From: Candidatus Binatia bacterium
Lineage (GTDB): Bacteria > Desulfobacterota > Binatia > Bin18
Reading direction: 5' to 3'
Length of the DNA stretch: 64,000 bases
NCBI GenBank assembly: GCA_963667495.1
Contig: OY763426.1
Coordinates: 1,923,615-1,987,614, forward strand
Each line of letters starts with the position of its first letter. Position 1 is the stretch's first letter. Below the pieces are notes generated by a model. That model made no database searches, had not been told where the DNA came from, and saw nothing but the letters and a program-made list of their open reading frames with translations. Shown here in pieces: positions 7,137 to 50,465 of the stretch. The translations under genes and the position numbers were made by a program.

Positions 7137-7240
7137 ACGTTGGGCTATCCTGCTCTTAACGAGCTTCCCACCTGACGGTGCGGGGGAAGGAGGGGGGCGG
7201 TGTCTGACAACGGATGCGAATCATAGGCCAGAAGTCTTGA

Positions 7241-7813: not shown

Positions 7814-8131
7814 CGTTTTCCAGCATCCTTAGGGTGAGACGTGAAAGGAGACATGACTATTCAGCACAAAGTCGCGAAAAAATACGGAGGTACACCTCCC
7901 CGGCCATAGTATCGGGCGCGCGTCTTTCCTAACAGACCCTCGTCGCTAACTGGAGGAGAAAAAACGAAAGAGGTGTGAATGGCACAGGAGTTTTTACGTC
8001 CAACAGCGGCAGATGCAGTTCCCCCTAGCCCTTGGTCAACTTGACAAGACGGGAAACCGGCCTTAAAGATTTCTGCCAAAAGCAGATTTTCATCATCCTA
8101 TGTATTGCCCATTCTCAGGCGCAACAAAACC

Positions 8132-9654: not shown

Positions 9655-9658
9655 TGAT

Positions 9659-11209: not shown

Positions 11210-11236
11210 GCGGTCTGTCTCTCCTCTACGCTGCGT

Positions 11237-12682
11237 ATGAGTGTGCCACGAACTATTCTCATGCTGATCGTCCTCCTGGGCCTGGGGGCGTACGTCTATT
11301 TTGTTGAGCTGCCAAAAGCCAAACAGGATACCGAAAAGCCGACGGTTTTGACATTTGAGAAGGAGTCGGTGGATACGTTGACCCTGACCTATCCCGAGCG
11401 AGAAATCAGTCTGCAACAGACCGCAGTGGGTGAGTGGAACCTCACGGCCCCCATACAGGCGAAAGCCGACGATACGGCGGTCAATAATATGTTGACCACC
11501 CTGGAAGACGAAGAGGTCACCCGCAGCCTGACCCCCCAGGAGCCGACCGACCTCGCCTTATATGGCCTGGCTCAGCCGCCCGTCGTTGTGCACCTTGTCC
11601 TGCAGGACGGCACGACACTGCCAAAAGTGTCGGTTGGCAAAGACACGCCTGTCGGATTTTCAGTCTATGTCCAAAAGGAAGGTGATCCGCAGCTTCATCT
11701 CACCCGTCAGGCGTTTCGCTTAGGACTCACCAAACACGTCAAAGAACTAAGAGATAAAGCGGTGCTACCGTTTGAGAGAGACAGTGTCACTCGGATAGCC
11801 ATCGATACCTCCGAGACCAGTATTGTTTTGGCCAAGACGGATGCTGGTTGGACGTTTGAACATCCCGCTCCATACGCCGTCGACGCCAGCGCTATACAAA
11901 CCTATCTCTCGACCCTGGAGGGCATCCGGGCAGAGGACTTCGTTGAGCAACCGCTGCTCGACCTGTCAGCTTTTGGACTCGACCCCGCTCAACTGACCGT
12001 TTCGCTCCACCTTGGGGAAGACACAAAACGAACACTATCGGTTGGAGACGAGAAAAGCGTGGATGCGGGGACAACGCAGCGTTACCTCAAGCGTGACAAT
12101 GGAGAAACGTTGTATCTTGTGCGCGCGGGTCTGCTGAAAGACCTGAGTAAGTCCGTCACCGATTTCCGAGATAAGGCTGTCGTCAGCATACCGGAAGGGA
12201 AAATCACCCAAGTCGTGATCACGCGCCAAGGGGGAGCGGGATTTACGCTCTCGCGAGAGGAAGAGAACGCGTGGGAAATTGACAGCAAATCTGAAGGAAC
12301 GCTCAAGACAGCCACCCTCAGCCAATTTGTCACTGATCTGCGAGAACTACGCGGATTCGAGATCGCCGCCGATAACCCGGAAGACTTGAGTCTATATGGA
12401 CTCGATGATCCGGCGGTCACCCTTGTCGCCACAGATAAGACCGGCGAAAAACTCGCGACTGTCTTTCTCGGCCAGACAACCCAAGAGGGAACGGAAAAGC
12501 ACTTTGCCATGCGGGCGGGAGGAGAGACCGTCTTTACCCTGCGGGATTATGTTTTTTCCCGGTTCGATAAGAATCCGGAAGATTTTTGGGAAAAGCCGGA
12601 GCCGGAAACGGAGAGCGCAGAGGAAACGCCCGCCTCAGAGCACAGGGAAGGGGTAGATGTTCAAGAAGAATTGCTGGAATGA
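11237..12682 (+). CDS. DUF4340 domain protein
   Basis: N-terminal TM anchor, then repeated beta-rich modules. DUF4340 genes canonically follow gldG-like genes. Confidence 0.5.
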   Translation: MSVPRTILMLIVLLGLGAYVYFVELPKAKQDTEKPTVLTFEKESVDTLTLTYPEREISLQQTAVGEWNLTAPIQAKADDTAVNNMLTTLEDEEVTRSLTPQEPTDLALYGLAQPPVVVHLVLQDGTTLPKVSVGKDTPVGFSVYVQKEGDPQLHLTRQAFRLGLTKHVKELRDKAVLPFERDSVTRIAIDTSETSIVLAKTDAGWTFEHPAPYAVDASAIQTYLSTLEGIRAEDFVEQPLLDLSAFGLDPAQLTVSLHLGEDTKRTLSVGDEKSVDAGTTQRYLKRDNGETLYLVRAGLLKDLSKSVTDFRDKAVVSIPEGKITQVVITRQGGAGFTLSREEENAWEIDSKSEGTLKTATLSQFVTDLRELRGFEIAADNPEDLSLYGLDDPAVTLVATDKTGEKLATVFLGQTTQEGTEKHFAMRAGGETVFTLRDYVFSRFDKNPEDFWEKPEPETESAEETPASEHREGVDVQEELLE

Positions 12683-12809: not shown

Positions 12810-13505
12810 CTAATTTTCAATCACGACTTCAACCCGGCGATTTTTGGCTCGACCAGTTGAGTTATCCGACCCATCGGGATTGGTATTGGGCGCAACCGGA
12901 TACCGTTCGCCGTACCCCGTTGTTGTTACACGGGCCTGGTCGACACCCGAGGTCGCCAAGGTACTGGCGACACTAGCCGCCCGTCTTTCAGATAAGCGTT
13001 GGTTTGCTTCTTCGCCGCCAATAGCATCGGTATGACCTTCAATCGACACCCGTCGTCCCTGGGCCTGATCATTCAGCACGTCAGCAATGTCCTGAACTCG
13101 ACTCTGAGCATCACCGGTCAAATCGGACCGACCGAATTCAAACAACACATCCGGAAGATTGACCACCACACCGCGCTCGGTTTCACGCGCCTCAAGATTA
13201 CGTCGCTTGAGTTCTTCAAGCAGTTGGCGATTCCGTGATATTGCCTGGCGTTGCCGTTCAATTTGCTGCTGGTTCGCTGCGAGTTCCGTATCGCGTTTTT
13301 GAAATTGATTACCGACGACTGCGCCGGTGACACCCCCCAGCGCCCCACCAATAGCAGCTCCGGCCCCCGGATTCCCAACCGCAGCGCCAATAATTGCGCC
13401 GGTGGCGGCCCCAAGACCCGCGCCCCCCAAGGTACTCTTCTCTCGGGTTGACAACGGCTGCGCGCAGCCGACCGTGCAGACAAACATGAACAGCGACAGA
13501 TAAAG
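12810..13505 (-). CDS. OmpA-family outer-membrane lipoprotein with glycine-zipper N-domain
   Basis: Lipobox FVCTVGC. Glycine zipper GGAGLGAATGAIIGAAVGNPGAGAAIGGALGG. C-terminal OmpA_C motifs (FEFGRSDL, IEGHTD, N..LSERRA). Confidence 0.85.
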   Translation of the reverse strand, partial: LYLSLFMFVCTVGCAQPLSTREKSTLGGAGLGAATGAIIGAAVGNPGAGAAIGGALGGVTGAVVGNQFQKRDTELAANQQQIERQRQAISRNRQLLEELKRRNLEARETERGVVVNLPDVLFEFGRSDLTGDAQSRVQDIADVLNDQAQGRRVSIEGHTDAIGGEEANQRLSERRAASVASTLATSGVDQARVTTTGYGERYPVAPNTNPDGSDNSTGRAKNRRVEVVIEN

Positions 13506-13540
13506 AACGGTCTTTCTCATAGCCAACACTTTACTCCCGT

Positions 13541-13883
13541 CTAGTATTCCTGCTGCCGTTTGAGTTCTTCGAGTTCCTGCCGCTGCTGCTCAAGCTCGCG
13601 CTGCTGCTGCTCGAGCTGAAGTTGCTGGTTCTGCTGCTGAGTTTCTTGATTCTGCATTTTGTCCCCGACGACGGCGCCGGTGACGCCCCCTAGCGCTCCA
13701 CCAATGGCGGCTCCAGCCCCAGGACTCCCAACGACGGCGCCGATAATTGCGCCAGTTGCGGCACCGAGACCCGCGCCACCCAGTGTCCCCTTCTCCCGAG
13801 TTGAGAGTGGTTGAGAGCAGGCGCTCACAAGAAACGCCGCCAGCACCAGGATACCACCCCATCGTATCTTGCTCTTTGTGCAC
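13541..13883 (-). CDS. glycine-zipper lipoprotein, paralog of the N-domain of the adjacent OmpA lipoprotein, with Q-rich coiled-coil tail
   Basis: Lipobox LVSACS. A near-identical 60-aa glycine-zipper block. The start is set at the internal ATG after the lipoprotein signal. Confidence 0.7.
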
Positions 13884-14146
13884 ATCGCAGACCTCCCAGA
13901 CTCCGATCTTCTCCTATTCTTTACTCTGGTATCGGAATAAATCTTTACCTTTTCCACCTTAATCGGCCCCTGGTATCGGGTCAATATCACGAGGGGGAAT
14001 CCGCGTAGGATTCGGTAGAATGACACCGAAACGCGGTCCCTATAGGGGCCGTTGTCCCAAGGAGAGCCGCAGCGTCCATCCAGCGAATGCTGGCCCTTCA
14101 TATCCCGTGCGAATGGACAAGAAAGGAATCAATCTTTGAGCAGCAG

Positions 14147-18131: not shown

Positions 18132-19007
18132 TCACGCCGAAAGCCCGCTATCCTGCAGAATAGATGCCCTCCTTCGGTAGGGAGCGTGGAAAGAGACATT
18201 CTTCGCCCAGGCTGCAAGCGGCAGACCGCTTGTCCCGGAGCGCTCTGCCAGAGCGGCTCGATTCCGTATTAGCCTGGGGTCCAGGGAAACCGTATCACTG
18301 CCCATCACAACGACATTGCCGCTCGGTACCGAGCAGGCAGTCGTATACCGGAAGGCCGCGGCAAACGTCCTGCGCGCGGCATCATACACTGGTGTAGAAG
18401 AGTGCAGGTTGGAAACGACCAGCCCGTGGGGACCCAGGCACGCACGGCATTCGGCGTAGAAATCGTAAGTCAAAAGATGGGGAGTAACCCCTTCGGCTCG
18501 GTAGGCGTCCAACATGATAAGATCGTAGGTCGTCCCAGCCGCTCGTGCGCGTACATACGACCTGCCATCGGCAATCACAGCGCGCTGACGCTCGTCCGGG
18601 AAAAACCCAAAGAAGCGGGTAGCAATGTCAACAACGAGGGGATCAAGTTCAACGCTATCGAGTTGCGCGTTTTCAAAAACATGGTGCAATACCATTTGCA
18701 GCCGCCCGCCCCCAAGGCCGATCAAAAGAATACGCCGTGGCTGAGCACACCACACCAGGGCTAACACCATAGCCTGAGTGTAGGGGGAGAGGAGGTCCAA
18801 GGGAGAGCGGGGGTCGAGCCGGGATTGGACTTCTTCAACGCGACTCTGCTGGTGTCGATAGCACAGCAGCAACTGATTATGCTTTCTGCGGATGACGACA
18901 TGGTTGTAGGCAGACCGGCGCTCAAAGAGGACGCCCTGTGGAGAGCGACGGAGTGGGGCGAGGCGACGGGTGATTGCCGCCAGATTGTGTTCTTGCCAGG
19001 GGGACAT
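18132..19007 (-). CDS. spermidine-synthase-like (polyamine aminopropyltransferase fold) protein
   Basis: The LLIGLGGG..., D-x-vElDp, DAY blocks typical of the spermine/spermidine synthase family. Confidence 0.6.
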   Translation of the reverse strand: MSPWQEHNLAAITRRLAPLRRSPQGVLFERRSAYNHVVIRRKHNQLLLCYRHQQSRVEEVQSRLDPRSPLDLLSPYTQAMVLALVWCAQPRRILLIGLGGGRLQMVLHHVFENAQLDSVELDPLVVDIATRFFGFFPDERQRAVIADGRSYVRARAAGTTYDLIMLDAYRAEGVTPHLLTYDFYAECRACLGPHGLVVSNLHSSTPVYDAARRTFAAAFRYTTACSVPSGNVVVMGSDTVSLDPRLIRNRAALAERSGTSGLPLAAWAKNVSFHAPYRRRASILQDSGLSA

Positions 19008-19074
19008 GCCTGAGTGGGGTCCGGATATTGGCTTGACTATTCGGGCTCAGGCCGGGCTTTATCTTCCCTAGCCC

Positions 19075-19494
19075 CTACCTGCTCTGGGTCGCAATAGCCA
19101 AACGACCGAGCCCTTCGGTGCGAGCCAGGTCCATGACCTGAACGACTCGATTATGGGTGACATCGCCGTCCGCCCGAATAACAAGTGTCACGTCTGCGCC
19201 TTGGCTCTTTTCGGCCTTAAAGCGGGCTTCGAGTTCGGCAATAGTCGTCGGTGTCTCGCCCAAGAAGAGTTGACCATCTTTCTTTAGGCTCACGCTCAGG
19301 CGTTTTTTTTCAGCCGGAGGTTTCGCCGATGCGGCCTTGGGCAGGCTCACGTCGACCTGGCCTTCGCGTGTTTTCTGAAAGGTTGCCAGAAAGCTGAACG
19401 TGATGAAGAAGAAGATGAACATATTGATGATGATATCAGTGAGCGCCAGCGGCTCCATACTCGTCAAGATTTTCGCTTTGCGCTTAAACTGCAT
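19075..19494 (-). CDS. exbD: biopolymer transport protein ExbD/TolR
   Basis: Single N-terminal TM. ExbD periplasmic domain pattern (L.I..DG.......V). Confidence 0.85.
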   Translation of the reverse strand: MQFKRKAKILTSMEPLALTDIIINMFIFFFITFSFLATFQKTREGQVDVSLPKAASAKPPAEKKRLSVSLKKDGQLFLGETPTTIAELEARFKAEKSQGADVTLVIRADGDVTHNRVVQVMDLARTEGLGRLAIATQSR

Positions 19495-20194
19495 GACGAG
19501 TTGGCTCCTGTAGCGGCACGGCCTCCGGGAGGGCTTCTTGCGCGGTTGTCCCGGTCAGGGCATCGAGGAGTTCTTCGGTACGCGTCTCGGTCAGACGGGT
19601 CAAACGCTGTATGCGGGAGGTCAGGTGGTTGTACAAAAGATAGTAAGGGATGGCGACCGTCAGCCCTGCTGCTGTGGTCAACATGGCCTTATAAATACCA
19701 CCGGCCAGCACGCCAACGGTAATTTGGTCGCCCAGCGTCTCCCAACTCATAAAGGCTTCGACCAGGCCAATAATCGTACCCAGGAAGCCCAGCATGGGTG
19801 CGACCCCGACCACACTTGCCAGGGCCGTCATATACGCCTCCAGCCCGGCCACCACCTCGCCTCCAAATCGTTCCAGGCGTCGCGTCAGCTCCGCCCGTTC
19901 CTCAACGCGATACAGGAAGGCCGTCTCGAACAGCCGGCCGAGCGGCGTGTTGTGCTCGCGGCAGACTTGGAGCGCCGCGTTCAGGGTACCCTCTTGGTCG
20001 AGATGCCCTCCCTGAATGAGGAGGTGCAGGCGCTCGCACAGCCGATTGAGCTGCGAGCGAAATCGCGCCAAGCCCCAAAACTTCGTAAGGACAATAGCCA
20101 GCGCGAAAATGGACAGGGCGATAATGAGATACATTATATTCCCGCCCTGGTCGATAAAATACAGAATTCCCGGAGAATCCACCTGTGTTGGCAT
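19484..20194 (-). CDS. exbB: MotA/TolQ/ExbB proton-channel protein
   Basis: Three TM segments. Conserved MLGFLGTIIGLVEAF...AGGIYKAMLTTAAGLTVAIP signature. Confidence 0.88.
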   Translation of the reverse strand: MPTQVDSPGILYFIDQGGNIMYLIIALSIFALAIVLTKFWGLARFRSQLNRLCERLHLLIQGGHLDQEGTLNAALQVCREHNTPLGRLFETAFLYRVEERAELTRRLERFGGEVVAGLEAYMTALASVVGVAPMLGFLGTIIGLVEAFMSWETLGDQITVGVLAGGIYKAMLTTAAGLTVAIPYYLLYNHLTSRIQRLTRLTETRTEELLDALTGTTAQEALPEAVPLQEPTRHAV

Positions 20195-20360: not shown

Positions 20361-20762
20361 ATGGGAAGAATAGTCGCAACAGTGGATATCGAAAATTTCT
20401 CCGAAACCGGCTCGTCTATTAAACTGGACGCCCTCGTTGATACCGGAGCAAGCTACCTCACCTTACCGTCACACTGGAAGAGCCGGTTCGGCGCGTTTGC
20501 TTCGGAGGAGACGGTTGAACTGCACACAGCGACCCAAGAAGTTGTCCAAGGAACAGTCTGCGGTCCGGTGAAAATAAGTGTGGAAGGATTTCGATCTATA
20601 TATAACGAGGTGCTTTTTATAGACATGAAGCCAGAGAACGGCGAATATGAGCCATTACTGGGTTATATCGCGCTTGAGCAATGTGGAGCGGCCGTGGATA
20701 TGCTCGGCCACAGGTTGGTCCCGGTAAAGTATATGGATGCGAAATCGCATGAAACGATGTGA
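20361..20762 (+). CDS. retropepsin-like (clan AA) aspartyl protease
   Basis: ALVDTGASYLTLP catalytic D-T/S-G-A motif, about 130 aa. Confidence 0.65.
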   Translation: MGRIVATVDIENFSETGSSIKLDALVDTGASYLTLPSHWKSRFGAFASEETVELHTATQEVVQGTVCGPVKISVEGFRSIYNEVLFIDMKPENGEYEPLLGYIALEQCGAAVDMLGHRLVPVKYMDAKSHETM

Positions 20763-20775
20763 ATAAGGAAACACC

Positions 20776-21243
20776 ATGGCTGTTCCAGTAGCAAAACCAC
20801 CACTCTCTGAGCACGACTACCATGCGTGGCTCCTTGAACAGGCGGCCCGTCTTCGTGCTCGTCAGTTTGACCAGATTGATTGTGAGGTGCTCGCGGAGGA
20901 GGTGGAAGACATGGGGCGGAGTGAACGGCGCGCGGTCGAAAGCCATCTGAAGAATCTTCTCATCCACCTTTTGAAATGGGCTAAGCAAAGGGAACGTCGC
21001 TCAGGAAGCTGGCGAGACAGCATTGACAATGCGCGAGATGCGCTTGCCGACTTGCTCCAAGACAGCCCCAGTCTTCGCCCTCAGCTCCCAGAATTTGTCA
21101 AGCGGCAATACCCCCGTGCCCGTCGGAGCGCCGCCAACCAAACCGGTCTGACAGTTTCGCGCTTTCCCGTCGCCTGCCCTTTCCGCTTGGAAGAAATTCT
21201 TGACGCCGATTTCTTTCCGGAGACGCTTGAGGAAAGAGGGTAG
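20776..21243 (+). CDS. DUF29 domain protein
   Basis: N-terminal HDYHAWLLEQAARLRARQFDQIDCEVLAEEVEDMGRSERRAVESHLKNLLIHLLKW matches the DUF29 family consensus recalled from memory. Confidence 0.6.
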   Translation: MAVPVAKPPLSEHDYHAWLLEQAARLRARQFDQIDCEVLAEEVEDMGRSERRAVESHLKNLLIHLLKWAKQRERRSGSWRDSIDNARDALADLLQDSPSLRPQLPEFVKRQYPRARRSAANQTGLTVSRFPVACPFRLEEILDADFFPETLEERG

Positions 21244-21276
21244 AAAGGGCCCTCTCCGAGTCTGCTTCATAACCAC

Positions 21277-21858
21277 ATGATAAAGGACGCTGCCATGAGA
21301 AACCTCTTGACAAGTCATCGCTCAATCACGGTTAGGCTTTTCCGCCGGCATTTTTTCTACCGCTTCTGTCTGATTGTACTCGGGGTTTGCGTCTTATCCG
21401 TTTTTCCAGAGTCCCCTCTTCAGGCTCAGCCACAGAATGTGGAAGTCCAGGTCCGGCCATTAAACGCAATAGCCCCGGAGATCGTCGTCCCGCCGGGCAG
21501 AGGCTCCTCTGCCATGCGCAGGACCACGGACGACATGCGCAGAGCCGCGGATGACAGGTGGGAACGCGCTCGGGACAGCGAAAACTTTGTGGTGGAAGTG
21601 AAGATTCACAATGGGACCGACCGCGCCTATCTGATTAAAGCCAATAAGGTCTCGTTACGCGCCGAGTCTGGCGAACGGGTGAGACCGCTGGAAGAAAGCG
21701 AAGAGAGTCCGACCCCTGTCCTCACGGATCAGACCATTGCGCCCGGCGCGGAAGTCCGAGGCTATCTCTCTTTCCCGCCTGGTTCCTATACAGGCGCACG
21801 GGGGTTTCTCATTGAAGAGGGCACCCAGGCGAACGAGGGGTTTAGCATAGACTTTTAG
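21277..21858 (+). CDS. secreted/membrane-anchored hypothetical protein
   Basis: N-terminal hydrophobic segment followed by a beta-rich domain. Confidence 0.4.
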   Translation: MIKDAAMRNLLTSHRSITVRLFRRHFFYRFCLIVLGVCVLSVFPESPLQAQPQNVEVQVRPLNAIAPEIVVPPGRGSSAMRRTTDDMRRAADDRWERARDSENFVVEVKIHNGTDRAYLIKANKVSLRAESGERVRPLEESEESPTPVLTDQTIAPGAEVRGYLSFPPGSYTGARGFLIEEGTQANEGFSIDF

Positions 21859-21890
21859 GCTTGCCGGTGGGCTCTGTGTCCAGATTCTGC

Positions 21891-24239
21891 CTATTCTTGG
21901 CGAATTTCCGGGGGAACAAACGCGGTCACGGGCGGTGGGTCGCCCTGATAGCGTTCGACCTGAACCAGGGTGGTATGCGCGCTGGGTCCCTGACCCAGCT
22001 TTGAGGTGCCTTTGTCCAAAGTAAGCACATTGGGGTTGCCGTGTTTTTCCAATGACCCCGGCACTCCCGGTTCGAGCGGATCATACCACGCGCCCGTGGG
22101 AAGCTGGACTACGCTCTTCTGGATGTTGGAGGTAATGCGCACGCCAGCCAGACATTGGCCCCGGTCATTAAAGACCCGGACAATATCGCCCTCGCTCAGC
22201 CCTCGCGTCTGGGCATCGGCCGGATGAATCCACAGGGGCTCGCGTTCGGCGACCTTTAAGCTGCGACTGACCGATCCCTGATCGAGTTGGCTGTGCAGAC
22301 GGCCGACCGGCTGATTAGAAGTCAAGTGGAGGGGGTAGTGCACGGCTCTCTCGCTCCCCAGCCATTCGGCCGGTTCCATCCAGGTCGGGTGAGGCGGACA
22401 ATCGTCGTAGTGATAGGACGCAATCCGCTCTGACCAGATCTCGATTTTCCCGGATGGCGTGTCCAGCGGATGAGTGTCGGGATCGGTCCGAAAGGCGGAC
22501 AGAAAGGGCTGGGGCTCAGACGGGAGCGGCAGTTCAAAATAACCGTCTTCCCAAAACTGCTCAAAGTCAGGCAAAGCAAAACCGCGTTCGCTCGCCCGTT
22601 CGCGGGAGAGGGCATAGAGGTGGCGCAGCCAACCCGCTTCGTCCCGTCCTTCGGTAAACCCTTCCCGAAAGCCAAGACGCTCGGCTAGGTCTGCAAAAAT
22701 ATCATGATCGTTCCGCGCCGCGCCGACCGGCTCTATCGCCTGTTTATTGGCTACCACAAAGCTGTCGCGGGGCGTGCAGACCATATCGTTGCGTTCGAGC
22801 GGGGTCGTCGCCGGGAGGATGATATCCGCGTGGCGGGCCATGGGCGTCCACCACGGCTCATGGACGATAACGGTCTCCGGCTTTTGCCAGGCACGTAACA
22901 GGCGGTTCAAATCCTGATGGTGATGGAAGACGTTGCCGCCGACCCAGTAGACCAGGCGAATATCAGGATAGGTCGCCCGGCGTCCGTTATAGTCGAATTC
23001 CGTGTTCGGATTCAGCAGAAGGTCGGCAATTCGGGCAACCGGAATGACATCCTCAACCGGGTGGGCACAGCGGTCCAAGGTGGCCCAGGGAATGCGAGAG
23101 GACGGGTTTCCGACCGTGGCGACGGAAGAGTAGCCATAGCCAAACCCTCCGCCGGGGAGGCCGATCTGTCCCAGCATGGCGGCCAGGGTGATTGCCATCC
23201 AATAGCTCTGCTCGCCATGGTCCGCCCGTTGGAGGGACCACGCTATCGTAATCAGCGTGCGTTTGGCGGCCATACGCCGGGCCAGCGTGGTAATCGTCTC
23301 TGCCTTCAGGCCGGTAATATTGGCCGCCCACTGCGCGTCTTTGGGCTGGCCATCGCTTTCGCCCATGAGATACGGTTGAAACCGCTCAAAGCCAACGCAG
23401 TACCGAGCCAGGAATTCGAGGTCGGCCAGCCCCTCTGTGACCAGGGTATGAGCCAGACCGAGCATCAGCGCCATATCGGTATTGGGGCGCGGGGTCAGCC
23501 ATTCGGCCCGTAGAAAGTCGGCCGTGTCGTTTTTCACCGGACCGATATTCAGGAATTCGACCCCTGCCTGCCGGCAGGCCTCCAGGCCCGCTCGGGTGCG
23601 ATGCCGGGCCACTCCGCCATAGGCCACCTGCGCGTTTTTGAGGGGCATGCCGCCAAACGCCACCACCAGTTCGGAATGTTGAGCGATCGTCTGCCACGAG
23701 GCCTGCTCGACCAGCAAACGAAAAAAATTCCCGGCAATATAGGGCATGGCCACATCGGCCGCGGCGTGGCTGTAGGTGTTTATGGAACGGACAAAGCCAC
23801 CAAAGAGATTGAGGAAGCGATGCAACTGACCTTGGGGGAAATGAAAGGAACCGGCGCTGCCCCAGCCGTATGAACCGGCATAAATCGCCCGGTTGCTGAA
23901 CGTGCTGCGGATACGCTCGAGTTCGGCGGCAACAAGATCAAGCGCCCGCTCCCAACTGAGGGCGACAAAAGGCTCGCCCCCACGGGTGCCACTGCCCGGG
24001 CCGTTCCCGAGCCAGCTTTCTCGTACCATGGGTTGGCGGATGCGGAGATCGTCATTGACCGCCTCAATATATGAACGCCCAAGAGGAGAAGGGTCCGGGT
24101 CTTCGGGTATGGCATCCATGGCAACTAAACGACCCTGTGTGACCCGAGGCGCATAGCCACCCCAGTGAAAGGCCGAACGTGGATTCAGAGAGGAAACGTG
24201 TCCTCCCTTCCTCTTTGCAGTGTTGTCAGCGGTTTTCAT
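21891..24239 (-). CDS. molybdopterin guanine dinucleotide S/N-oxide reductase (BisC/TorZ-like, DMSO reductase family)
   Basis: 782 aa. MopB-type blocks and a C-terminal molybdopterin dinucleotide-binding region. No twin-arginine signal, so cytoplasmic BisC-like. Confidence 0.8.
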   Translation of the reverse strand: MKTADNTAKRKGGHVSSLNPRSAFHWGGYAPRVTQGRLVAMDAIPEDPDPSPLGRSYIEAVNDDLRIRQPMVRESWLGNGPGSGTRGGEPFVALSWERALDLVAAELERIRSTFSNRAIYAGSYGWGSAGSFHFPQGQLHRFLNLFGGFVRSINTYSHAAADVAMPYIAGNFFRLLVEQASWQTIAQHSELVVAFGGMPLKNAQVAYGGVARHRTRAGLEACRQAGVEFLNIGPVKNDTADFLRAEWLTPRPNTDMALMLGLAHTLVTEGLADLEFLARYCVGFERFQPYLMGESDGQPKDAQWAANITGLKAETITTLARRMAAKRTLITIAWSLQRADHGEQSYWMAITLAAMLGQIGLPGGGFGYGYSSVATVGNPSSRIPWATLDRCAHPVEDVIPVARIADLLLNPNTEFDYNGRRATYPDIRLVYWVGGNVFHHHQDLNRLLRAWQKPETVIVHEPWWTPMARHADIILPATTPLERNDMVCTPRDSFVVANKQAIEPVGAARNDHDIFADLAERLGFREGFTEGRDEAGWLRHLYALSRERASERGFALPDFEQFWEDGYFELPLPSEPQPFLSAFRTDPDTHPLDTPSGKIEIWSERIASYHYDDCPPHPTWMEPAEWLGSERAVHYPLHLTSNQPVGRLHSQLDQGSVSRSLKVAEREPLWIHPADAQTRGLSEGDIVRVFNDRGQCLAGVRITSNIQKSVVQLPTGAWYDPLEPGVPGSLEKHGNPNVLTLDKGTSKLGQGPSAHTTLVQVERYQGDPPPVTAFVPPEIRQE

Positions 24240-24322
24240 GGGTCAGGATTTTCCTCTGAGACAGAAGAGCCAAGGGGCACGCTCGCGTACCCCTCGGAAA
24301 GCGGTGAAGAACAAGGAGGCGC

Positions 24323-26725
24323 TTACGCCCCACACGTTTGGTTGGCAAAGTCCTGAATTTTGGTCTTGAGGCTGGTATCACCGAGTCGTTTCAGCATTCT
24401 TTGAGCGCTACTGACCGTCTTACACGCCTGGGTCGCATTGCCGAGGGTGTCATTCAGACGGGCGACTTCAAACGTCCCGCGAAACCAGAGCGGATCACCG
24501 ACCTGGGTACCCTTGAGCATAGCCTCCCACAGGGAGAGTGCCCGTTTTTTATCTCCCCGTACCTCAGAGACCTGGGCGAGCCCGACAATGGCGACCAGCG
24601 CATAGGCGCCCTGCTTTTGCTCAAGGTCTGTATAGATAATCTCAGCCTTGTCGTATTGCTTGGTATCGAGATAGAGCTGGGCCAAGTCATAATGGAAGCG
24701 ATCCGGAGACTGATCCTCCGCAAATTGGCCATCGTTCTTGAGCCATACTTCATGCAGACGTGCCAGCGTCCGCTTGGCAATGAGTGCGTTGTCTGTATCA
24801 TTCTGACGGCGGAGCTTACGGATGTCTTTTTCCAGCACGCCAGACAGTCCGGCCAGGAGTTCCTGCTGTTTGTCGGGCTGGTAGCGATCTACAATTTTCT
24901 CGACGTCGTTGGCGAGGTCGGCATAGCGCCCGGTCTTCTGCAGGGCGACCAGCCGGGTACGGGAAACGGTTTCAAACGCATCGGGCTGCTTCGGATATTT
25001 CTCTTCAAAGCCGTCGAGGAAAGAGACGATCTGTTCGGCGTTCGCGTCCATATCGTGACTCAAATAGACTGCATGCATCACGCTGACCTTGCCCGGATAT
25101 TCACGATAGGGGTTTCGATTCACCAGTTTGGGACTGCGCTTGGCCAACGTCGCGCTGTTCTTCCAGTAGGCGTCCAGACTGGCTCCAATCCGCTGGCGGA
25201 TAGCGTCTTCACTCAGCCCACTACTGGTATCGCCGTCTTCAATCGCGTGCAGAACCTCGAAGTAGGCCTGGAGCGTGGCATAGTCGGCTCGCACCCGGAA
25301 CGCCGGCGCACCGCGCACCTTTTTATACGCATCGGCTGCCTTCAAATACTCCTCTTGCTCCTGGTAATACTCACCCAGCCGGAAGTGGGCTTCGTAGATG
25401 GACCGGTGCTTGGGGTATTTCCGCGCAAAGTCGCGAATCGCCTGCACATACAGCTTCCCATTCCGCGCACTTTGATCCCGGGCGTATAAGGACTCCGCCG
25501 CCTTGAACTGAAAGTACTCCGCGTCAGACGCGTGCTTGGTCTTTGCCCCCCCGTTGTTGAGAAAGGTGTCCAGGGTATTGATGGCCTGTCGATAGCGACG
25601 TTGTTCATACAGCCCCACGCCCAGGTAGTATTGCGCGTCTGTCTGATACACGGCAGCGTTGGGATCGTTTGAAGCAATGACTTCCTCAAGAAAAGGAACC
25701 GCTTTGGCAAAGCGCCGTTTCTGCATGTGCTCCTTGGCTTTTAACCAGGGCGGAAACGGGTTTTCCTGCTCGGCAATGACGAGTTCTTCCTCGCGCGTCA
25801 GCTCTGCCTGTATCAACGCGTCGGCTCGGTCCTGCCACTTGCCGCCGGCCTTGCGGAGTTCAAGAATCAATCCGAGGAGTTGACCGCGCAACTGGCTGCG
25901 CTTCTTACCGCTCGCCTTTCTACTCTGCCTGGCAATATTTTTTGCCTGCTGGAATTGGGCTTGCGCCATTTCCGTCGGAGAAGGTCGGGTTTTCCCGCCA
26001 CGCTTGGCATAGCGCCGCGTCTGCTCCAGCGCCCTCTGGGCCTTTCGTTTCATATCGGTAGACACGCCGGGCTGTTTGAGCAGCAGTTCAAAATCCCGGA
26101 TGGCCCAGTCAAACTTCTCAAGTTCGCGCTCGCTCAGCGCTCGACCGAACAGACTCTCGTTCTTGAGCCGCGAGGCTTGATCGCCAACCGCGAATTCCCC
26201 AAAGCCGTTCATGGCTGTCGTCAACAGGGTTTCCTTTTTCTTCTCATCGAACGTGAACGAGCCGATGTAGTTCAGCCAGTTCAGGAAATATAAGGCACGC
26301 GCCGCCACCCCTTGTTCAGCACGGTATTCCTGTGAGTCCTGCACGGCCTCCAGGTCGCCATCCCGCGCAATGACATCCTGCGTCATCTGGTCAATGCGCT
26401 TGAAACTGCCGGTATAGATATCGTTGAGCGGACCATGGAGCGTCTCATAGATATCGCGAATAGCTTTTTTGCTCGACGGGGTTTTAACTGATTGGGCCAA
26501 ATTGGGGAGTGCAACAAATTCTAAGGCAACCGGGCCCAGGATTTGAATGGCTTGCAGCTTGGCTTGCGCATCCCAACTCCCCTGTTTCAGTGCATTGGCT
26601 TTGCTCCGGGCCTGCTTCGCTCGGGCAGAGAGTTCAGCAATAGACGCCGCCTCGACCTCGGAGTTCAACCAACCCAGGTTCAGGCTCAGAGAGATCATAC
26701 CGATAATGGAAACCAGACGCCGCAC
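24323..26725 (-). CDS. tetratricopeptide-repeat protein, 800 aa, N-terminal signal peptide
   Basis: Signal peptide MRRLVSIIGMISLSLNLGWLNSEVEAAS, then many TPR-like helical repeats. Confidence 0.6.
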   Translation of the reverse strand: MRRLVSIIGMISLSLNLGWLNSEVEAASIAELSARAKQARSKANALKQGSWDAQAKLQAIQILGPVALEFVALPNLAQSVKTPSSKKAIRDIYETLHGPLNDIYTGSFKRIDQMTQDVIARDGDLEAVQDSQEYRAEQGVAARALYFLNWLNYIGSFTFDEKKKETLLTTAMNGFGEFAVGDQASRLKNESLFGRALSERELEKFDWAIRDFELLLKQPGVSTDMKRKAQRALEQTRRYAKRGGKTRPSPTEMAQAQFQQAKNIARQSRKASGKKRSQLRGQLLGLILELRKAGGKWQDRADALIQAELTREEELVIAEQENPFPPWLKAKEHMQKRRFAKAVPFLEEVIASNDPNAAVYQTDAQYYLGVGLYEQRRYRQAINTLDTFLNNGGAKTKHASDAEYFQFKAAESLYARDQSARNGKLYVQAIRDFARKYPKHRSIYEAHFRLGEYYQEQEEYLKAADAYKKVRGAPAFRVRADYATLQAYFEVLHAIEDGDTSSGLSEDAIRQRIGASLDAYWKNSATLAKRSPKLVNRNPYREYPGKVSVMHAVYLSHDMDANAEQIVSFLDGFEEKYPKQPDAFETVSRTRLVALQKTGRYADLANDVEKIVDRYQPDKQQELLAGLSGVLEKDIRKLRRQNDTDNALIAKRTLARLHEVWLKNDGQFAEDQSPDRFHYDLAQLYLDTKQYDKAEIIYTDLEQKQGAYALVAIVGLAQVSEVRGDKKRALSLWEAMLKGTQVGDPLWFRGTFEVARLNDTLGNATQACKTVSSAQRMLKRLGDTSLKTKIQDFANQTCGA

Positions 26726-26875
26726 GCTTGCACTCCTTTTTCGACCCTGCCCTGCACGTTATGGTCTTGCGTTCAAAGCCCCTACAGTCCATCCCCGCCT
26801 GCACGAAGAGAAACGCTTGTCCAGCACTGAGTCAGGGTTCTCTGGTATCATGCTATTTGACCACCAGACTGCATT

Positions 26876-28117
26876 CTACTCCAAGTCCCGCAAGTATTTC
26901 GCCATCTCCACTTCCCAGCGCGAACCAAAGGTCATAATGATGATGTTCTTGGTCAAGGCCTTTTCCTCAGTCAGCGGGATAAAGTCTCCTCCGCCAGCCC
27001 GGGCCACGGATGCCATGGTATGCCGGAAGTCGCGATAGAAACCCGGTAGCGGCGTTGGCTGAAAGGCGATATTCATGACTTTCCCGGTCTGCTCCCAGAG
27101 CGCGTACTCAAAGTCCTCGTGCATCTTATCGGCCAGGTCCATCACACTGACCACTCCACCGCGCGCCTGGAACCCTTGCGCCAAGCCCAGCACGCTGCTC
27201 ATGCTCTCCGGATGAGGCGGCGAGCCAGCGGCAAGAATCACCACCCGACGGGAGCGTTTCCGCCAGCTCAAATCGTTCATGGCCGCGTCCATGCCTTCAT
27301 ACACCGCTTCCGGCCAATCGCCACCCCCGTCGGAGTGCAGATTGGCCAAAAAGCCTTTGAGCTTGGGTGTGGAAAAACTCAAGTCAACCCACTTGGTGAC
27401 ATATTCTTCACCCCTGTCACGATAGGCCACAACCCCGATCCGTGAGGTCGGGACGAGCTTGCGCAACAGCGTCACCAGCTTTGTCAAGCGGTCACGAACC
27501 GAATCGATCACAAACTGCATGCTGTCAGTTGCGTCGATCACCAGGGCAACATCCAGACCAACCTTACGCAGCCCGCGACCATAGTCGCCAAAGCCCCCGC
27601 CCCCGCCGAGGTCTCCAGCGCCAACCAGACCGCTGAGCTGGGCGTCGATACCAGAAAAACTACTGTCGGCGCGCTGGACCTCAATCGTCACCGGTCCGAT
27701 GCCCGAGAAGACGGGAATGGCCGCCCGTTGGATAGGGGCCTGGAGTGGACCGGTTGATGACGGACCAGTCGGACGTGCTCTATTCGGTGCGAGGTCTTCC
27801 ATGGTCAGGATGCCCGGAATATCCTCCAGCGAGGGCTCCCCCTCCCAATCGTCCGGCATCTCCTCCTCCGCCATGGCGTCCAGTTCTTCTTGCGTGAGCG
27901 GCAATGCGTTGACCCGGACCATTTCCGGCTCTTTCATGATGGTCACTGCCGTGGTGGCAAAGATGGACAAAATGAGAATATGAGCCGCCGTCGAGAAGGC
28001 GAACCAACGTGCATTTCTGCCAAAGCCCCCGCCTCGATACAGCCACAAATCCTCTTGGATTTTACGCTCGACTGAAGTGCTCTCGGATGTTGTTGTATTG
28101 TCTTCGGGTGAAGCCAT
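26876..28117 (-). CDS. membrane-anchored VWA-domain protein with TonB/TolA-like N-terminal architecture
   Basis: One TM (WFAFSTAAHILILSIFATTAVTIM), an acidic/Pro-rich linker, then a VWA domain with the MIDAS motif VIDATDSM. Confidence 0.7.
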   Translation of the reverse strand: MASPEDNTTTSESTSVERKIQEDLWLYRGGGFGRNARWFAFSTAAHILILSIFATTAVTIMKEPEMVRVNALPLTQEELDAMAEEEMPDDWEGEPSLEDIPGILTMEDLAPNRARPTGPSSTGPLQAPIQRAAIPVFSGIGPVTIEVQRADSSFSGIDAQLSGLVGAGDLGGGGGFGDYGRGLRKVGLDVALVIDATDSMQFVIDSVRDRLTKLVTLLRKLVPTSRIGVVAYRDRGEEYVTKWVDLSFSTPKLKGFLANLHSDGGGDWPEAVYEGMDAAMNDLSWRKRSRRVVILAAGSPPHPESMSSVLGLAQGFQARGGVVSVMDLADKMHEDFEYALWEQTGKVMNIAFQPTPLPGFYRDFRHTMASVARAGGGDFIPLTEEKALTKNIIIMTFGSRWEVEMAKYLRDLE

Positions 28118-28152
28118 GGCTCTCCCCTCCTTTGGCGATTACGACGGACCGC

Positions 28153-28572
28153 TTACCCTGCCTGTCTGGCCGCAATCGCGACCTGAGCCGCTCCGGCCCG
28201 TTGGGCAATGGAGAGAATTTTTACCGCCTCTCCTAAAATGACATCCTTATCCCCTTCAAGGACAACCGGCACGTCCGGCTTGGCCGTGACTTGCTGCCGA
28301 ATGGCCACCTCAAGATCGGCCATGGTCACCGGTCTGGCGTTCACAAAAATTTCCTTTTGGGGTGTCACCGTAATCACAATCTGACGTGGCTCCGAGTCGG
28401 TTTCCTGCACCTCGGGCAGGTTAATTTCCGCTCCGGATTGGACCATCGCCACACTTGTCACCATAAAGATGATCAGTAGCACCAAAAAGATGTCGCACAA
28501 GGGAACGATATTGATCTCGGCCATAATATCGGATCCACTCCCGCTCTTCTTGCGTGGGCTAGTCATTCCCAT
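28153..28572 (-). CDS. biopolymer transport protein ExbD/TolR family
   Basis: The listed ORF is over-extended. The real start is the ATG preceded by GGAGGAAAG at ~28570. A single TM plus ExbD periplasmic domain. Confidence 0.8.
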   Translation of the reverse strand: MGMTSPRKKSGSGSDIMAEINIVPLCDIFLVLLIIFMVTSVAMVQSGAEINLPEVQETDSEPRQIVITVTPQKEIFVNARPVTMADLEVAIRQQVTAKPDVPVVLEGDKDVILGEAVKILSIAQRAGAAQVAIAARQAG

Positions 28573-29203
28573 GAGCTTTCCTCCCCAGGCGGACTGCTTC
28601 GAGGACACGGTCTGAGCTGATCGTTGTGGCCGCCTCGATCCGCTCAAGCTTGGTATGAAAATAGTTATAGAAGACCACCGCAACGATCCCGACTGCGAGA
28701 CCAAGAGCCGTTGCAACCAACGCCTCGGAAATACCACCGGCCACCACAGCAAAACCACCACTGCCCTCAACCGCCATATTTGTGAAGGATTTGATAATCC
28801 CGATGACAGTGCCGAGTAGCCCAATGAAGGGCGCACTCACGCCGACTGTTCCCAGCACCCAGATGCTGCCTTTGAGCGCCTCGATTTCCTCGAAGCGCCG
28901 GTCCTCAATGATTTCAGACAAATATTCGAGCGATTCGCCCTCTTGTTGGGAAAGGACATCACGAAATATCCGGCCCGCCGGTTTATCCGCCTGCTCCTCG
29001 GCGGAGGTGATCGCTGCTTGAAAATCACCCTTCTGTAAGACGCCAACCAGACCGCCGGCAATCTGCAAGGTCCCCCCAATCAATCCGCGCAGGGCAACTA
29101 TCCGTTCAAAGATGATAGTGATGACAACCACCGACATTATGATCAGGGGATAGGTGATATACCACCCCTGCTGGATCATATCGAGAACACTTAAACCTTC
29201 CAT
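28559..29203 (-). CDS. MotA/TolQ/ExbB proton-channel family protein
   Basis: Three TM segments. GLLGTVIGIIKSF...GGISEALVATALGLAVGIVAV signature. Stop/start overlap with the downstream exbD-like gene. Confidence 0.85.
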   Translation of the reverse strand: MEGLSVLDMIQQGWYITYPLIIMSVVVITIIFERIVALRGLIGGTLQIAGGLVGVLQKGDFQAAITSAEEQADKPAGRIFRDVLSQQEGESLEYLSEIIEDRRFEEIEALKGSIWVLGTVGVSAPFIGLLGTVIGIIKSFTNMAVEGSGGFAVVAGGISEALVATALGLAVGIVAVVFYNYFHTKLERIEAATTISSDRVLEAVRLGRKAHGND

Positions 29204-29245: not shown

Positions 29246-29830
29246 CTATATCGCTTCTCTCTCCGAAGAAGAGACGCCGGTTGGTCCATCGGCCTTCAAT
29301 CCTTGACCATTCTGCCCATCGATTGTGGCCAGGAATTCCTCAAGCCAATAAATTTCCCCTTTCAAATACGCCAATCCATGCGCAATAATCTGGGCTTGCG
29401 GGAGCGTTACACCCTGCTCATTCCAGTAGGCCTGCTGCTCGGTGACCCAGGCCAGCCGCATGCGAGTCCATTCAAGTTGGCTCTGGAGTGCCTCACGCAG
29501 CTCTGAGTTGTCAAGCAGATGACCAAAGGCGAGCGCGGCGTTCAAGGGGTCAAAGACTTTGGTTCGCTCCTTGGTGTCGAACAGTTGGCGGCGCAACTCA
29601 ACCCGTAAATAGTCGTGGCCGGCCGGCGTGATTTGGTAGACCTGCCGGGCCGGATAGTTGCCCTTTTGCTCGACTTTGGTCTTTTCCACATAACCGGCCT
29701 GTTCAAGCTGCCCGAGGTTATAGTAGAGCGAGCCACCACTCAGGTTGATATACTTGGCGTACAGCCGGTGCTCGACTTCCTGCCGTAGTTCATAACCATG
29801 AAACGGCTTCTCGGATAACAGCCCTAAGAT
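29246..29830 (-). CDS. PadR-family transcriptional regulator (start codon uncertain)
   Basis: The translation upstream of the listed ORF continues ...VQLVILGLLSEKPFHGYELRQEVEHRLYAKYINLSGGSLYYNLGQLEQAGYV, the PadR winged-helix N-terminus. No in-frame ATG there; an ATT or other non-ATG start is inferred. Confidence 0.7.
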   Translation of the reverse strand: MLGLLSEKPFHGYELRQEVEHRLYAKYINLSGGSLYYNLGQLEQAGYVEKTKVEQKGNYPARQVYQITPAGHDYLRVELRRQLFDTKERTKVFDPLNAALAFGHLLDNSELREALQSQLEWTRMRLAWVTEQQAYWNEQGVTLPQAQIIAHGLAYLKGEIYWLEEFLATIDGQNGQGLKADGPTGVSSSEREAI

Positions 29831-29981
29831 GACGAGTTGAACGCTAATGCCGCACCCCCATAAACTAATTTAATCAGACTAGTTAAAGGAAGTGGAGATT
29901 CAAGTCAAGAGGTTTGTCATTCTTTTTTCGATGATGAAAAATTTTTATCTTTAATAAAAAGTCGAGTTGACTCCTTCAGGA

Positions 29982-31710: not shown

Positions 31711-32787
31711 ATGTCAACGGATGTAACCGCACTCCTCAGCAGCGCTGTCCGATCAGGCGCTTCTGACATCCATCTCAGCAGTGGCGCACCGCCCATGATT
31801 CGGCTCGACGGGGTCATGAAACGGCTTGATCAGACCCCGCTGTCCCGGGATGAGGTCCATACCCTGGTGTACGACATTATGGATGAGGAGCAGCGGAAGG
31901 CGTTTGAGGAGAGTCTCGAACTCGACTTCTCCTATGACCTGGGTGATGTGGGGCGCTTTCGGGTGAATGTCTTTATGCAGCAACGCGGTGAGGGTGCGGT
32001 GTTGCGGGCCATTCCAACGGTGATTGCCTCGTTCGAGGAACTCGGGCTGCCACCGATTCTCAGCCAACTGTGTGCACGGAGAAAGGGGCTGGTCCTGGTG
32101 ACCGGTCCAAGCGGCTGTGGAAAATCGACCACCCTGGCCGCCATGGTCAACCACCTCAACAAGACCGTCGACGGTCACATCGTCACGATCGAAGACCCCA
32201 TCGAGTTCACCCACCAGTCCAGGAAATGCCTCGTCAACCAGCGTGAACTCGGTGTCCATACCCATTCGTTTGCCAAGGCGCTACGGGCGGTATTACGCGA
32301 AGACCCCGACATTATTCTGATTGGTGAAATGCGCGACCTGGAAACCATCCAACTCGCTCTCACGGCCGCAGAGACCGGCCACCTTGTTTTGAGCACCTTA
32401 CACGCGCCCGGCGCAGCGCAGACCGTTGACCGGATCATTGACGTCTTTCCAGCCGCCCAACAGGCCCAGATTCGGACCCAGTTCGCCGACGCGATTGAAG
32501 CCATCATCACCCAGACTTTGTGTCAAAAGAAAGGCGGGGGGCGAGTCGCGGCCCTGGAAATTCTGGTGGGCAGCCCGGCAGTCCGCACGCTGATCCGCGA
32601 GGGCAAGGGGCACCAAATTCTCTCAGCCCTCCAGGTCGGCCAAAAGGATGGGATGCAGACCATGGACAGGGCGCTTTCTGACCTCGCCACGCGAGGGCTT
32701 ATTACGCAGCAAGAAGCGCAAGCCAAGAGCCCGACCCCGAACCTCTCTGGTCAGGCTGGTCGGGCACTCCTACGCGCGCCGGGCTAA
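31711..32787 (+). CDS. pilT: type IV pilus twitching-motility ATPase PilT
   Basis: Walker A GPSGCGKST, Asp/His boxes and the PilT-specific AIRNLIRE-like motif (AVRTLIREGK). Confidence 0.9.
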   Translation: MSTDVTALLSSAVRSGASDIHLSSGAPPMIRLDGVMKRLDQTPLSRDEVHTLVYDIMDEEQRKAFEESLELDFSYDLGDVGRFRVNVFMQQRGEGAVLRAIPTVIASFEELGLPPILSQLCARRKGLVLVTGPSGCGKSTTLAAMVNHLNKTVDGHIVTIEDPIEFTHQSRKCLVNQRELGVHTHSFAKALRAVLREDPDIILIGEMRDLETIQLALTAAETGHLVLSTLHAPGAAQTVDRIIDVFPAAQQAQIRTQFADAIEAIITQTLCQKKGGGRVAALEILVGSPAVRTLIREGKGHQILSALQVGQKDGMQTMDRALSDLATRGLITQQEAQAKSPTPNLSGQAGRALLRAPG

Positions 32788-43390: not shown

Positions 43391-43416
43391 AGAGGGGATT
43401 AAGGGGGGAGAAGAAA

Positions 43417-44676: not shown

Positions 44677-44707
44677 CCCACACTGAAGCCACCGAGGAAT
44701 CAGCGCC

Positions 44708-47288: not shown

Positions 47289-47289
47289 C

Positions 47290-48135: not shown

Positions 48136-48144
48136 GATTCTGCC

Positions 48145-49986: not shown

Positions 49987-50167
49987 GCGGGGGGTATGAG
50001 AGTGGAACGGGTGACGGATATGATGGTGTTTGGCGGCCTGGGGAACCCACCCCGGCGAATGAATTGAGGAGGAAGGAAGCAGACAGCAATTTTACAGTTA
50101 AAAAACAGATATGGCCCACAATCGCGTTCGTTGACAACAACCCCAAACCGCAGGAAAGGAAACAGAT

Positions 50168-50380: not shown

Positions 50381-50465
50381 TTAGACTTCATCCCTCCTTG
50401 GTTCCAGGTAAGAGTGGAGTTCCTATACGGACTTCCGCCATTCAGACCACGAGGAAAGCGCACCT

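Follow-up and report, generated by a model that had tools for sequence, protein, structure and literature searches.

A 64,000-nt stretch of the genome of a Candidatus Binatia bacterium (assembly GCA_963667495.1, contig OY763426.1, positions 1,923,615 to 1,987,614; referred to below as the window) carries, between positions 24323 and 29203 of its minus strand, four co-oriented and tightly packed open reading frames (ORFs) in the order exbB-like, exbD-like, VWA protein and TPR protein. We consider it fairly probable that these genes constitute a dedicated Ton/Tol-type force-transduction module, in which the transducer ends in a VWA domain and not in the C-terminal domain of TonB or TolA. To our knowledge, Ton and Tol are the only well-understood routes by which energy of the inner membrane reaches the periplasm or the outer membrane in diderm bacteria. 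A third type of transducer, with a VWA head, would widen the range of what 5:2 motors drive.

The class itself is not new. The same proposal was made independently in 2025 for related vWA proteins, with AlphaFold3 (AF3) models (Williams-Jones et al., Mol Biol Evol 2025, PMC12204202), and the system of the window is a new member, from a new lineage, of that recently proposed class. An earlier sequence-only reading of this DNA had taken the cassette for an uncharacterized envelope system energized by the proton motive force. The architecture it described stands and the coupling to the motor is what we infer, but the system can no longer be called undescribed, given the 2025 publication.

Organization of the cassette

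The four minus-strand ORFs were all found where the sequence-only reading had placed them (Table 1), and the start/stop overlap that it claimed for the first two genes was seen both in the DNA and in homologous loci. Thus, the start codon of exbD (ATG, 28572) overlaps the end of exbB (TAG, 28559-28561) by 14 nt, and the same 14-nt overlap recurs in homologous loci such as L001. A GGAGG Shine-Dalgarno sequence lies 5' of exbB, while the VWA gene starts at 28117, 35 nt past the exbD stop codon, and is preceded by an AAGGAGG site. The TPR gene runs from a GTG start codon at 26725 to position 24323 and is followed by a terminator-like hairpin, which likely marks the end of the operon. The gene overlap, the tight spacing, the Shine-Dalgarno sites and the terminal hairpin make the four genes look like a single operon, and the 14-nt overlap together with the Shine-Dalgarno sites predicts translational coupling of exbB and exbD. 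Rfam and tRNA scans of the window gave no matches. In the exbD-like protein, the transmembrane (TM) aspartate is conserved, within the sequence PLCDIFL.

Anchor and linker of the VWA protein

The 413-aa product of the third gene begins with a 37-residue N terminus, followed by one hydrophobic helix (residues 38 to 61, or 35 to 62 in the AlphaFold2 [AF2] model), a disordered region (residues 62 to 185) and a VWA fold, confirming the single TM helix, linker and C-terminal VWA domain that had been read from the sequence. The acidic and Pro-rich character ascribed to the linker was also borne out, since residues 62 to 185 have a net charge of -12, with 10% Pro and 15% Gly, and are modeled by AF2 with low confidence. 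Across the family, the linker measures 113 to 153 residues.

No TonB_C or TolA domain (PF03544, PF06519, PF13103) was detected in the 413-aa protein by Pfam or NCBIfam, and no TonB_C, TolA, TolB or Pal domain was found among the ∼45 ORFs of the window or the Pfam-annotated genes of loci L001 to L008. The absence of TonB-C and TolA-III noted earlier therefore holds for the operon, the 64-kb window and the homologous loci, none of which has a canonical tonB beside the cassette. The idea of a TonB/TolA layout whose C-terminal domain has been exchanged for a VWA domain gained additional support from an invariant S42-x3-H46 motif in the anchor.

In an alignment of 18 diverse homologues of the VWA protein (46 to 86% identity; alignment A1), S42 and H46 were invariant within the TM helix, with L/F53 and T55/T57 lying on the helix turns that follow. 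Of the best 150 cluster representatives, 123 bear a TM helix, and in 100 of these S-x3-H falls within that predicted helix. TonB and TolA attach to their motors through an SHLS motif, of which S-x3-H represents the Ser and the His (PMC12204202). When the family profile was compared with E. coli TolA by hhalign, R37, S42 and H46 fell on R13, S18 and H22 of TolA in a 16-residue match that was not significant; with E. coli TonB nothing aligned past the linker and no match was obtained. Because a match of 16 residues cannot be significant, the likeness of the anchor to TonB and TolA rests on the motif and on its conservation.

At the position where TonB and TolA carry their motor-box strand, residues E65 to L72 form a candidate motor box with the alternating consensus ExIKVKxL (E-x-I/V-K/R-V-K-x-L), V69 being conserved in at least 90% of the sequences. 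Farther along the linker, residues 90 to 102 contain a conserved linear motif, W-E-G-E-P-S-L-x-D-x-P-G, for which we know of no counterpart. The conserved columns of the linker in alignment A1 are V69, G93, S96, D99, G102 and L104.

The VWA head

The C-terminal part of the protein gave Pfam matches of modest score to PF25106 (VWA_4), PF13519 (VWA_2) and PF00092 (VWA). In the AF2 model, an alpha/beta domain with the beta-alpha order of the VWA fold extends from residue 189 onward, and Foldseek related it with a probability of 1.0 to VWA structures, including anthrax-toxin receptors (ANTXR), integrin I-domains, Rpn10 and, as the top match, 4jdu, a BatA-like "aerotolerance-related membrane protein." A sequence search of the PDB with the VWA family profile found no match.

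The sequence-only reading had assigned to this domain an intact metal-ion-dependent adhesion site (MIDAS). The first part of that site stands: the triad D195/T197/S199 is present in D195-A-T197-D-S199 (nucleotides 27521-27535), and D-x-T-x-S is conserved in alignment A1, as is a second-loop motif, GGGD264-267-W-P-E270. The last Asp, for its part, is missing. In AGSPPH297-302, Gly298 occupies the place where this residue is expected, with Ser299 next to it, and G298-S-P-P-H302 is conserved. The canonical MIDAS pattern (DxSxS with downstream Thr and Asp) was thus not found in this VWA domain. A motif census showed that many of the broader relatives have GDAPPH at the Gly298 site, while the clade of the window has GSPPH and a P0124-type clade, which is also motor-linked, has SSPPH. 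Alignment A1 also shows near-invariance of the 17 C-terminal residues (FGSRWxVEMAKYLRDLE).

Comparison by hhalign with the beta-I domain of integrin beta-3 gave a probability of 7.7%, which is not significant; in this weak alignment the registers were DATDSM/DLSYSM, GGGDWPE/NRDAPEGG and AGSPPH/TDAKTH. Several close homologues carry precomputed matches to PF00362 (Integrin_beta). Judged by these motifs and profiles, the head falls into an integrin-beta/VWA_4-like subfamily that is marked by a particular variant of the MIDAS.

The TPR protein

The fourth gene encodes the 800-aa protein that had been described as a signal-peptide TPR protein, in agreement with its Pfam TPR matches and its Sec signal peptide. 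This peptide has an AxA site, lacks a lipobox Cys and is conserved in 73 orthologues, and two C-terminal cysteines (residues 768 and 798) are conserved in at least 90% of them. The conserved signal peptide and the paired cysteines are consistent with a periplasmic location. AF2 predicted an all-helical solenoid (predicted local distance difference test [pLDDT] score, 88). The most conserved block comprises residues 121 to 235 and includes an invariant D122-G-D124-L-E126 segment, which in the model lies in a loop between a long helix (residues 83 to 120) and a short one (residues 125 to 129). Foldseek matched the model to generic long solenoids (Ctr9, TTC7, Ski3) with TM-scores of ∼0.2, the only bacterial periplasmic matches among the top 50 being Campylobacter chains 9hmf_K and 9hmf_L, and a PDB sequence search found no relative.

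Conservation of the cassette and wider family

At least 541 stretches of a species-representative genome collection encode relatives. The best 80 of them are mostly from Binatia, with some labeled Methylomirabilota, Deltaproteobacteria or Polyangiaceae. Homologous loci were fetched, translated and then searched with the proteins of the window. ExbB, ExbD, VWA and TPR genes were found on one strand and in the same order in ∼85 of the 88 fetched loci, essentially all those long enough to show the cassette, with VWA identity across the conserved loci falling to 39% (39 to 97% for full-length homologues). Given this recurrence, the arrangement is not due to chance. The TPR gene is always downstream of the VWA gene in these loci. 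Clustering of neighboring ORFs over 80 loci identified only the four core genes as universal; the neighbor counts are lower bounds, as the greedy ORF caller took some antisense ORFs in GC-rich loci.

A HMMER search of 1.84 billion cluster representatives returned 71 matches at E values of ≤1e-30 and 1,893 at ≤1e-10. A cultured carrier was sought among cluster members and by protein search, and only metagenomes and metagenome-assembled genomes were found as sources. In divergent relatives (34 to 47% identity), rearranged clusters were observed with the order VWA-ExbB-ExbD-ExbD-TPR (TPR proteins of 685 to 797 aa) and, in one case, VWA-ExbB-ExbD-TPR (713 aa for the TPR protein). In one rearranged cluster, L090, the TPR protein is homologous to that of the window (phmmer E value, 7e-43). 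The presence of the same four parts in another order, with a homologous TPR protein, indicates that the four-component set is older than any single gene order.

Other relatives have an FHA domain, a cytoplasmic phosphopeptide-binding domain, fused ahead of the anchor. This FHA-TM(S-x3-H)-linker-VWA architecture, of the GDAPPH type, was found in P0164, P0190, P0191, P0196, P0198, P0206 and P0209 and at positions 7001-9019 of locus L089, often with a long helical C-terminal extension, and suggests a version of the same anchor that is linked to phospho-signaling. In the one FHA-fused locus that was looked at, no ExbB/ExbD genes were next door.

Proposed mechanism and alternative explanations

In the mechanism that we propose, ExbB and ExbD would form the usual 5:2 proton-driven stator, and the TM helix of the transducer would dock outside the ExbB pentamer via S42 and H46. 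The beta-prone ExIKVKxL segment would bind the periplasmic dimer of ExbD, like the motor box of TonB and TolA, and proton flux would pull or reel in the ∼125-residue linker, mechanically loading the periplasmic VWA head. We infer the 5:2 stoichiometry, the docking through S42/H46 and the transmission of force by the linker from what is known of TonB and TolA, by analogy, together with the conservation pattern. The head, for its part, would hold a partner through an integrin-beta-like metal site (DxTxS plus GGGDxPE). This partner would most likely be the co-encoded TPR protein, favored as the ligand since it is found in every case where the VWA protein is linked to the motor. Two candidate contacts may be envisaged, one between the MIDAS face and the invariant acidic D-G-D-L-E loop of the TPR protein and another in which the VWA protein would place its invariant C-terminal tail in a groove of the TPR solenoid. 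The TPR protein would then serve as a periplasmic or outer-membrane-proximal scaffold, and the output is most likely envelope tethering or remodeling rather than nutrient import.

Several points weigh against this mechanism. As judged from the sequences, the similarity of the anchor to TonB and TolA is at the motif level only, the hhalign match being not significant, and the AF2 monomer shows no strand at the candidate motor box (residues 65 to 72), where its confidence is low. The transducer model as a whole is mediocre (pLDDT, 57), for which reason it was used for the fold and not for detail. Metal-dependent ligand binding by the head is uncertain because the predicted MIDAS lacks its last Asp, and the identity of the ligand is a guess. 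FHA-fused P0191, as well as L088 and L091, is not adjacent to a motor, and the members of the family are known computationally only. Finally, ∼3 Lys/Arg residues precede the TM helix and 2 to 5 follow it, which leaves the topology ambiguous by the positive-inside rule. For this reason the topology was argued from the relatives in which an FHA domain precedes the homologous S-x3-H helix and the VWA domain: with FHA at that end, the N terminus should lie in the cytoplasm and the VWA domain in the periplasm, the same orientation that TonB and TolA have.

In a more specific version of the mechanism, the cassette is an integrin-like mechanical coupler: the proton-driven 5:2 motor would pull on the integrin-beta-I-like head, which would engage the D-G-D-L-E loop of the TPR scaffold under load. 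This would be a third functional branch of Ton/Tol force transduction, serving neither import nor Pal mobilization. We regard this version as unlikely. If it were true, Ser/Thr phospho-signaling would be connected to the same anchor through the relatives with an FHA fusion.

Four other explanations were considered. One is that the cassette is an analogue of Tol-Pal which stabilizes or constricts the outer membrane, with the TPR protein acting as CpoB/YbgF and the VWA domain in place of TolA domain III; it concerns the output, and the motor-coupling step is common to both readings. It draws on the top NCBIfam matches, which were TolQ, TolR and tol_pal_ybgF, on the label "TolA-binding protein" that JGI gives to several TPR homologues, and on the envelope genes (Lnt, heptosyltransferase, ArnT-like) that flank the cassette in one lineage. 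However, all three scores are far under the equivalog cutoffs (105 versus 221 bits for the ExbB-like protein, which is thereby marked as a divergent family member, 88 versus 127 bits for the ExbD-like protein and 42 versus 90 bits for the TPR protein). The YbgF match covers only a 43-residue stretch of a protein of 800 aa, compared to ∼260 aa for CpoB, and neither TolB nor Pal adjoins the cassette in any locus examined, so that we give this explanation only a small chance. A static envelope complex of the Bat (Bacteroides aerotolerance) type, which would do no more than share an operon with the ExbB/ExbD pair, with a motor that serves an unlinked TonB and no force passing through the VWA protein, is quite unlikely. 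Bat operons do encode a TPR protein together with TM-anchored VWA proteins, the top Foldseek match is the BatA-like 4jdu, and a second ExbB/ExbD pair, itself without a transducer, is located nearby. The hallmarks of bat operons are a MoxR-type AAA+ ATPase and a DUF58 gene, though, and neither was present in any annotated locus. The Foldseek likeness is a generic VWA likeness, integrin and ANTXR structures scoring about equally. Moreover, a static complex would leave the invariant S-x3-H of the anchor unexplained, and the ExbB/ExbD linkage survives gene-order rearrangement over deep divergence.

Even less weight can be given to a surface-adhesion or gliding machine, in which the motor would drive a VWA adhesin-like element as in the Agl-Glt/CglB system of Myxococcus. 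Such a role was speculated on by Williams-Jones et al. (PMC12204202), and CglB is reported to be a VWA adhesin to which a TolQR-like motor supplies power indirectly (PMC9946355). The window also encodes PilT, a GldG-like ABC component and a Tad pilus locus. In other lineages, though, synteny between the pilus genes and the cassette is lost, and its universal neighborhood consists of the four core genes only, with no linked outer-membrane components of the Glt kind. An inner-membrane tether with a ∼125-residue linker would in any case reach the periplasm or the outer membrane and not the cell surface, and we consider this reading very unlikely. Zorya-type antiphage defense, with the 5:2 motor sensing envelope perturbation, is extremely improbable. 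Zorya uses a MotAB/ExbBD-like stator, and the second ExbB of the window gave a marginal match to ZorA (E value, 2.6e-4), but the four core proteins had zero PADLOC matches, nuclease or helicase effectors are absent, and the chromosomal context is stable across the whole class, as is not expected of a defense island.

Other genes of the window

The coordinates of the features described are given in Table 1. A gene for a PadR-family regulator lies directly 5' of exbB and occupies the same place in L001, L007 and more than 27 loci; it is a clade-specific accessory. The sub-clade of the window shares this upstream PadR gene, a second ExbB/ExbD pair and a SpeE-like gene after the TPR gene. In the window, the winged helix-turn-helix of PadR is encoded 5' of the first in-frame ATG, GTG or TTG, so that a full-length protein, which in relatives measures ∼200 aa, would need a noncanonical start codon.

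The second ExbB and ExbD are only 29% and 24% identical, respectively, to those of the cassette, and the two motor pairs are thus regarded as old paralogues. This second pair is without a transducer gene of its own. TPR, ExbB2, ExbD2 and SpeE-like genes are contiguous in L001, L007, L032 and other loci, while in the window ∼4 kb of other genes separate the TPR gene from the second motor block. Relative to L001 and L007, positions 20361-24239 are an insert at this point. In loci L046 and L050, the SpeE-like gene is directly 3' of the TPR gene and the second motor is absent.

Table 1. Positions of the cassette, its parts and other features of the window
Feature	Position	Strand	Basis or remarks
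exbB/tolQ-like proton-channel subunit, 214 aa, three TM helices	28559..29203	minus	PF01618, E 1.9e-31
exbD/tolR-like subunit, 139 aa	28153..28572	minus	PF02472, E 3e-27
TonB/TolA-architecture protein with VWA head, 413 aa	26876..28117	minus	VWA Pfam matches; AF2 and Foldseek fold
Single TM helix of VWA protein, residues 38-61	27935..28006	minus	Carries S42-x3-H46 (27980-27994)
Periplasmic linker (predicted), residues 62-185	27563..27934	minus	pLDDT <50 at 62-75 and 86-182; Pro/Gly-rich
VWA domain, residues ∼186-413	26876..27562	minus	Invariant columns, Foldseek, motif census
Secreted TPR/helical-solenoid protein, 800 aa	24323..26725	minus	TPR Pfam matches; signal peptide, residues 1-26 (26648-26725)
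Terminator-like hairpin	24270..24297	minus	26 nt past TPR stop; 12 pairs, 8 G-C; T-rich tail
PadR-family regulator gene	29246..29866 (upper end approximate)	minus	Vir_act_alpha_C/PadR C-terminal match
Second ExbB/ExbD pair and SpeE-like gene block	18132..20194	minus	Pfam; synteny in relatives
Second ExbB	19484-20194	minus	Pfam
Second ExbD	19075-19494	minus	Pfam
SpeE-like cytoplasmic protein (PF01564)	18132-19007	minus	Pfam
DMSO-reductase-family molybdopterin oxidoreductase	21891-24239	minus	In ∼4-kb insert
DUF4352 protein	21277-21858	plus	In ∼4-kb insert
Two small ORFs	20361-21243	plus	In ∼4-kb insert
PilT-like T2SSE ATPase	31711-32787	plus	
613-aa protein with C-terminal VWA domain	48145-49986	plus	Tad/Flp locus
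Secretin with pilus-N domain	50851-53580	plus	Tad/Flp locus
T2SSE ATPase	56917-58365	plus	Tad/Flp locus
Two T2SSF proteins	58362-59396, 62102-63064	plus	Tad/Flp locus

On the other side of the cassette, PilT-like, ECH and His_Phos_1 genes beside the PadR gene are syntenic between Binatia and Methylomirabilota (L001), which would seem to reflect conservation of gene order and not a link in function. A Tad/Flp-type pilus locus extends over positions 46500-63064 of the plus strand, with a G+C content of up to 0.61 to 0.66, and is preceded on the same strand (42659-46510) by genes for a small TPR protein, a diheme cytochrome c peroxidase of the MauG/CCP family and a DAHL-domain histidine kinase. 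Genes at 8105-12682 (plus strand) specify an ABC ATPase together with a GldG-like ABC_transp_aux protein (PF09822) and a DUF4340 protein. They make up an ABC-2-type accessory cluster such as is labeled gliding associated in Bacteroidetes. Two adjacent glycine-zipper proteins are encoded at 12810-14101 (minus strand), one of them with a C-terminal OmpA-family peptidoglycan-binding domain; the latter is the only Pal-like protein of the window and is not syntenic with the cassette elsewhere.

Comparison with known systems

With TonB-ExbB-ExbD and TolA-TolQ-TolR, the cassette shares homologous motor subunits (PF01618, PF02472), the TM aspartate of ExbD, the predicted topology of the transducer, an S-x3-H motif in the register of S18/H22 of TolA and a disordered periplasmic spacer. 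In contrast, its transducer has a VWA head and neither TonB_C nor TolA-III, and thus offers TonB boxes or TolB no head for beta-strand augmentation; the 800-aa TPR protein is an obligate partner; and no TonB-dependent transporter, TolB or Pal is linked to the cassette.

The integrin beta I-like and hemicentin-type VWA domains (PF25106, PF00362) have a common motif register with the head, at the profile probability of 7.7% given above, whereas the head differs from them in having Gly298 for the last MIDAS Asp and in lacking the hybrid domain, the PSI domain and the acidic pair of the site adjacent to MIDAS (ADMIDAS). As in the Bat system, where BatA and BatB (VWA) occur with BatC (TPR), a membrane-anchored VWA protein and a TPR protein are encoded in one operon, and 4jdu is the best structural match; the cassette differs in the absence of MoxR and DUF58 and in the presence of an ExbB/ExbD motor and of a single-TM anchor with S-x3-H. 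In Campylobacter, PflA and PflB (9hmf chains K and L), the periplasmic scaffold of the stator ring of the flagellum, are also secreted TPR solenoids of ∼700 to 800 aa and work beside a 5:2 stator of the MotAB family. The TM-score of ∼0.2 is that of all long solenoids, however, and there is no sequence similarity, so that the likeness may be taken as an analogy only.

A literature search returned one directly relevant paper and nothing else, that of Williams-Jones et al. (PMC12204202). It describes inner-membrane-tethered vWA "force transducers" with an SHLS helix, a disordered linker and a motor box, encoded next to a tolQ-like gene, two tolR-like genes and a TPR gene in Proteobacteria, the PVC group, Bacteroidetes and Rhodothermaeota, and supports them with AF3 models. 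Common to those proteins and the one studied here are the N-terminal TM helix with SHLS/His, a disordered domain II of ∼100 residues, the C-terminal vWA domain and the synteny with a TolQ-like plus TolR-like motor and a TPR gene. The lineages differ, as the cassette of the window belongs to Binatia and relatives, and so does the gene order: exbB-exbD-VWA-TPR with one exbD, compared to TPR-tolQ-tolR-tolR-vWA in the archetype from Tichowtungia aerotolerans, which has two heterologous tolR genes and two transducers. The Tichowtungia VWA domain lacks a DxSxS/DxTxS motif, whereas that of the window keeps DxTxS and GGGDxPE. The hhalign comparison of alignment A1 with Tichowtungia transducer 1 (sequence from the supplement) gave a match that was not significant (probability, 7%; E value, 0.005), running collinearly from the TM helix as far as strand beta-4 of the VWA fold. 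In view of the different lineage, gene order, number of exbD genes and VWA subtype, the cassette was filed as a new member of the 2025 class. To the 2025 proposal it adds a module whose four genes are strictly conserved as a unit among Binatia and neighboring uncultured lineages; a TPR protein of ∼700 to 800 aa that is present wherever VWA protein and motor are linked, and not as an occasional neighbor; a head of the integrin-beta/VWA_4-like kind with a predicted MIDAS variant; and a set of FHA-fused relatives.

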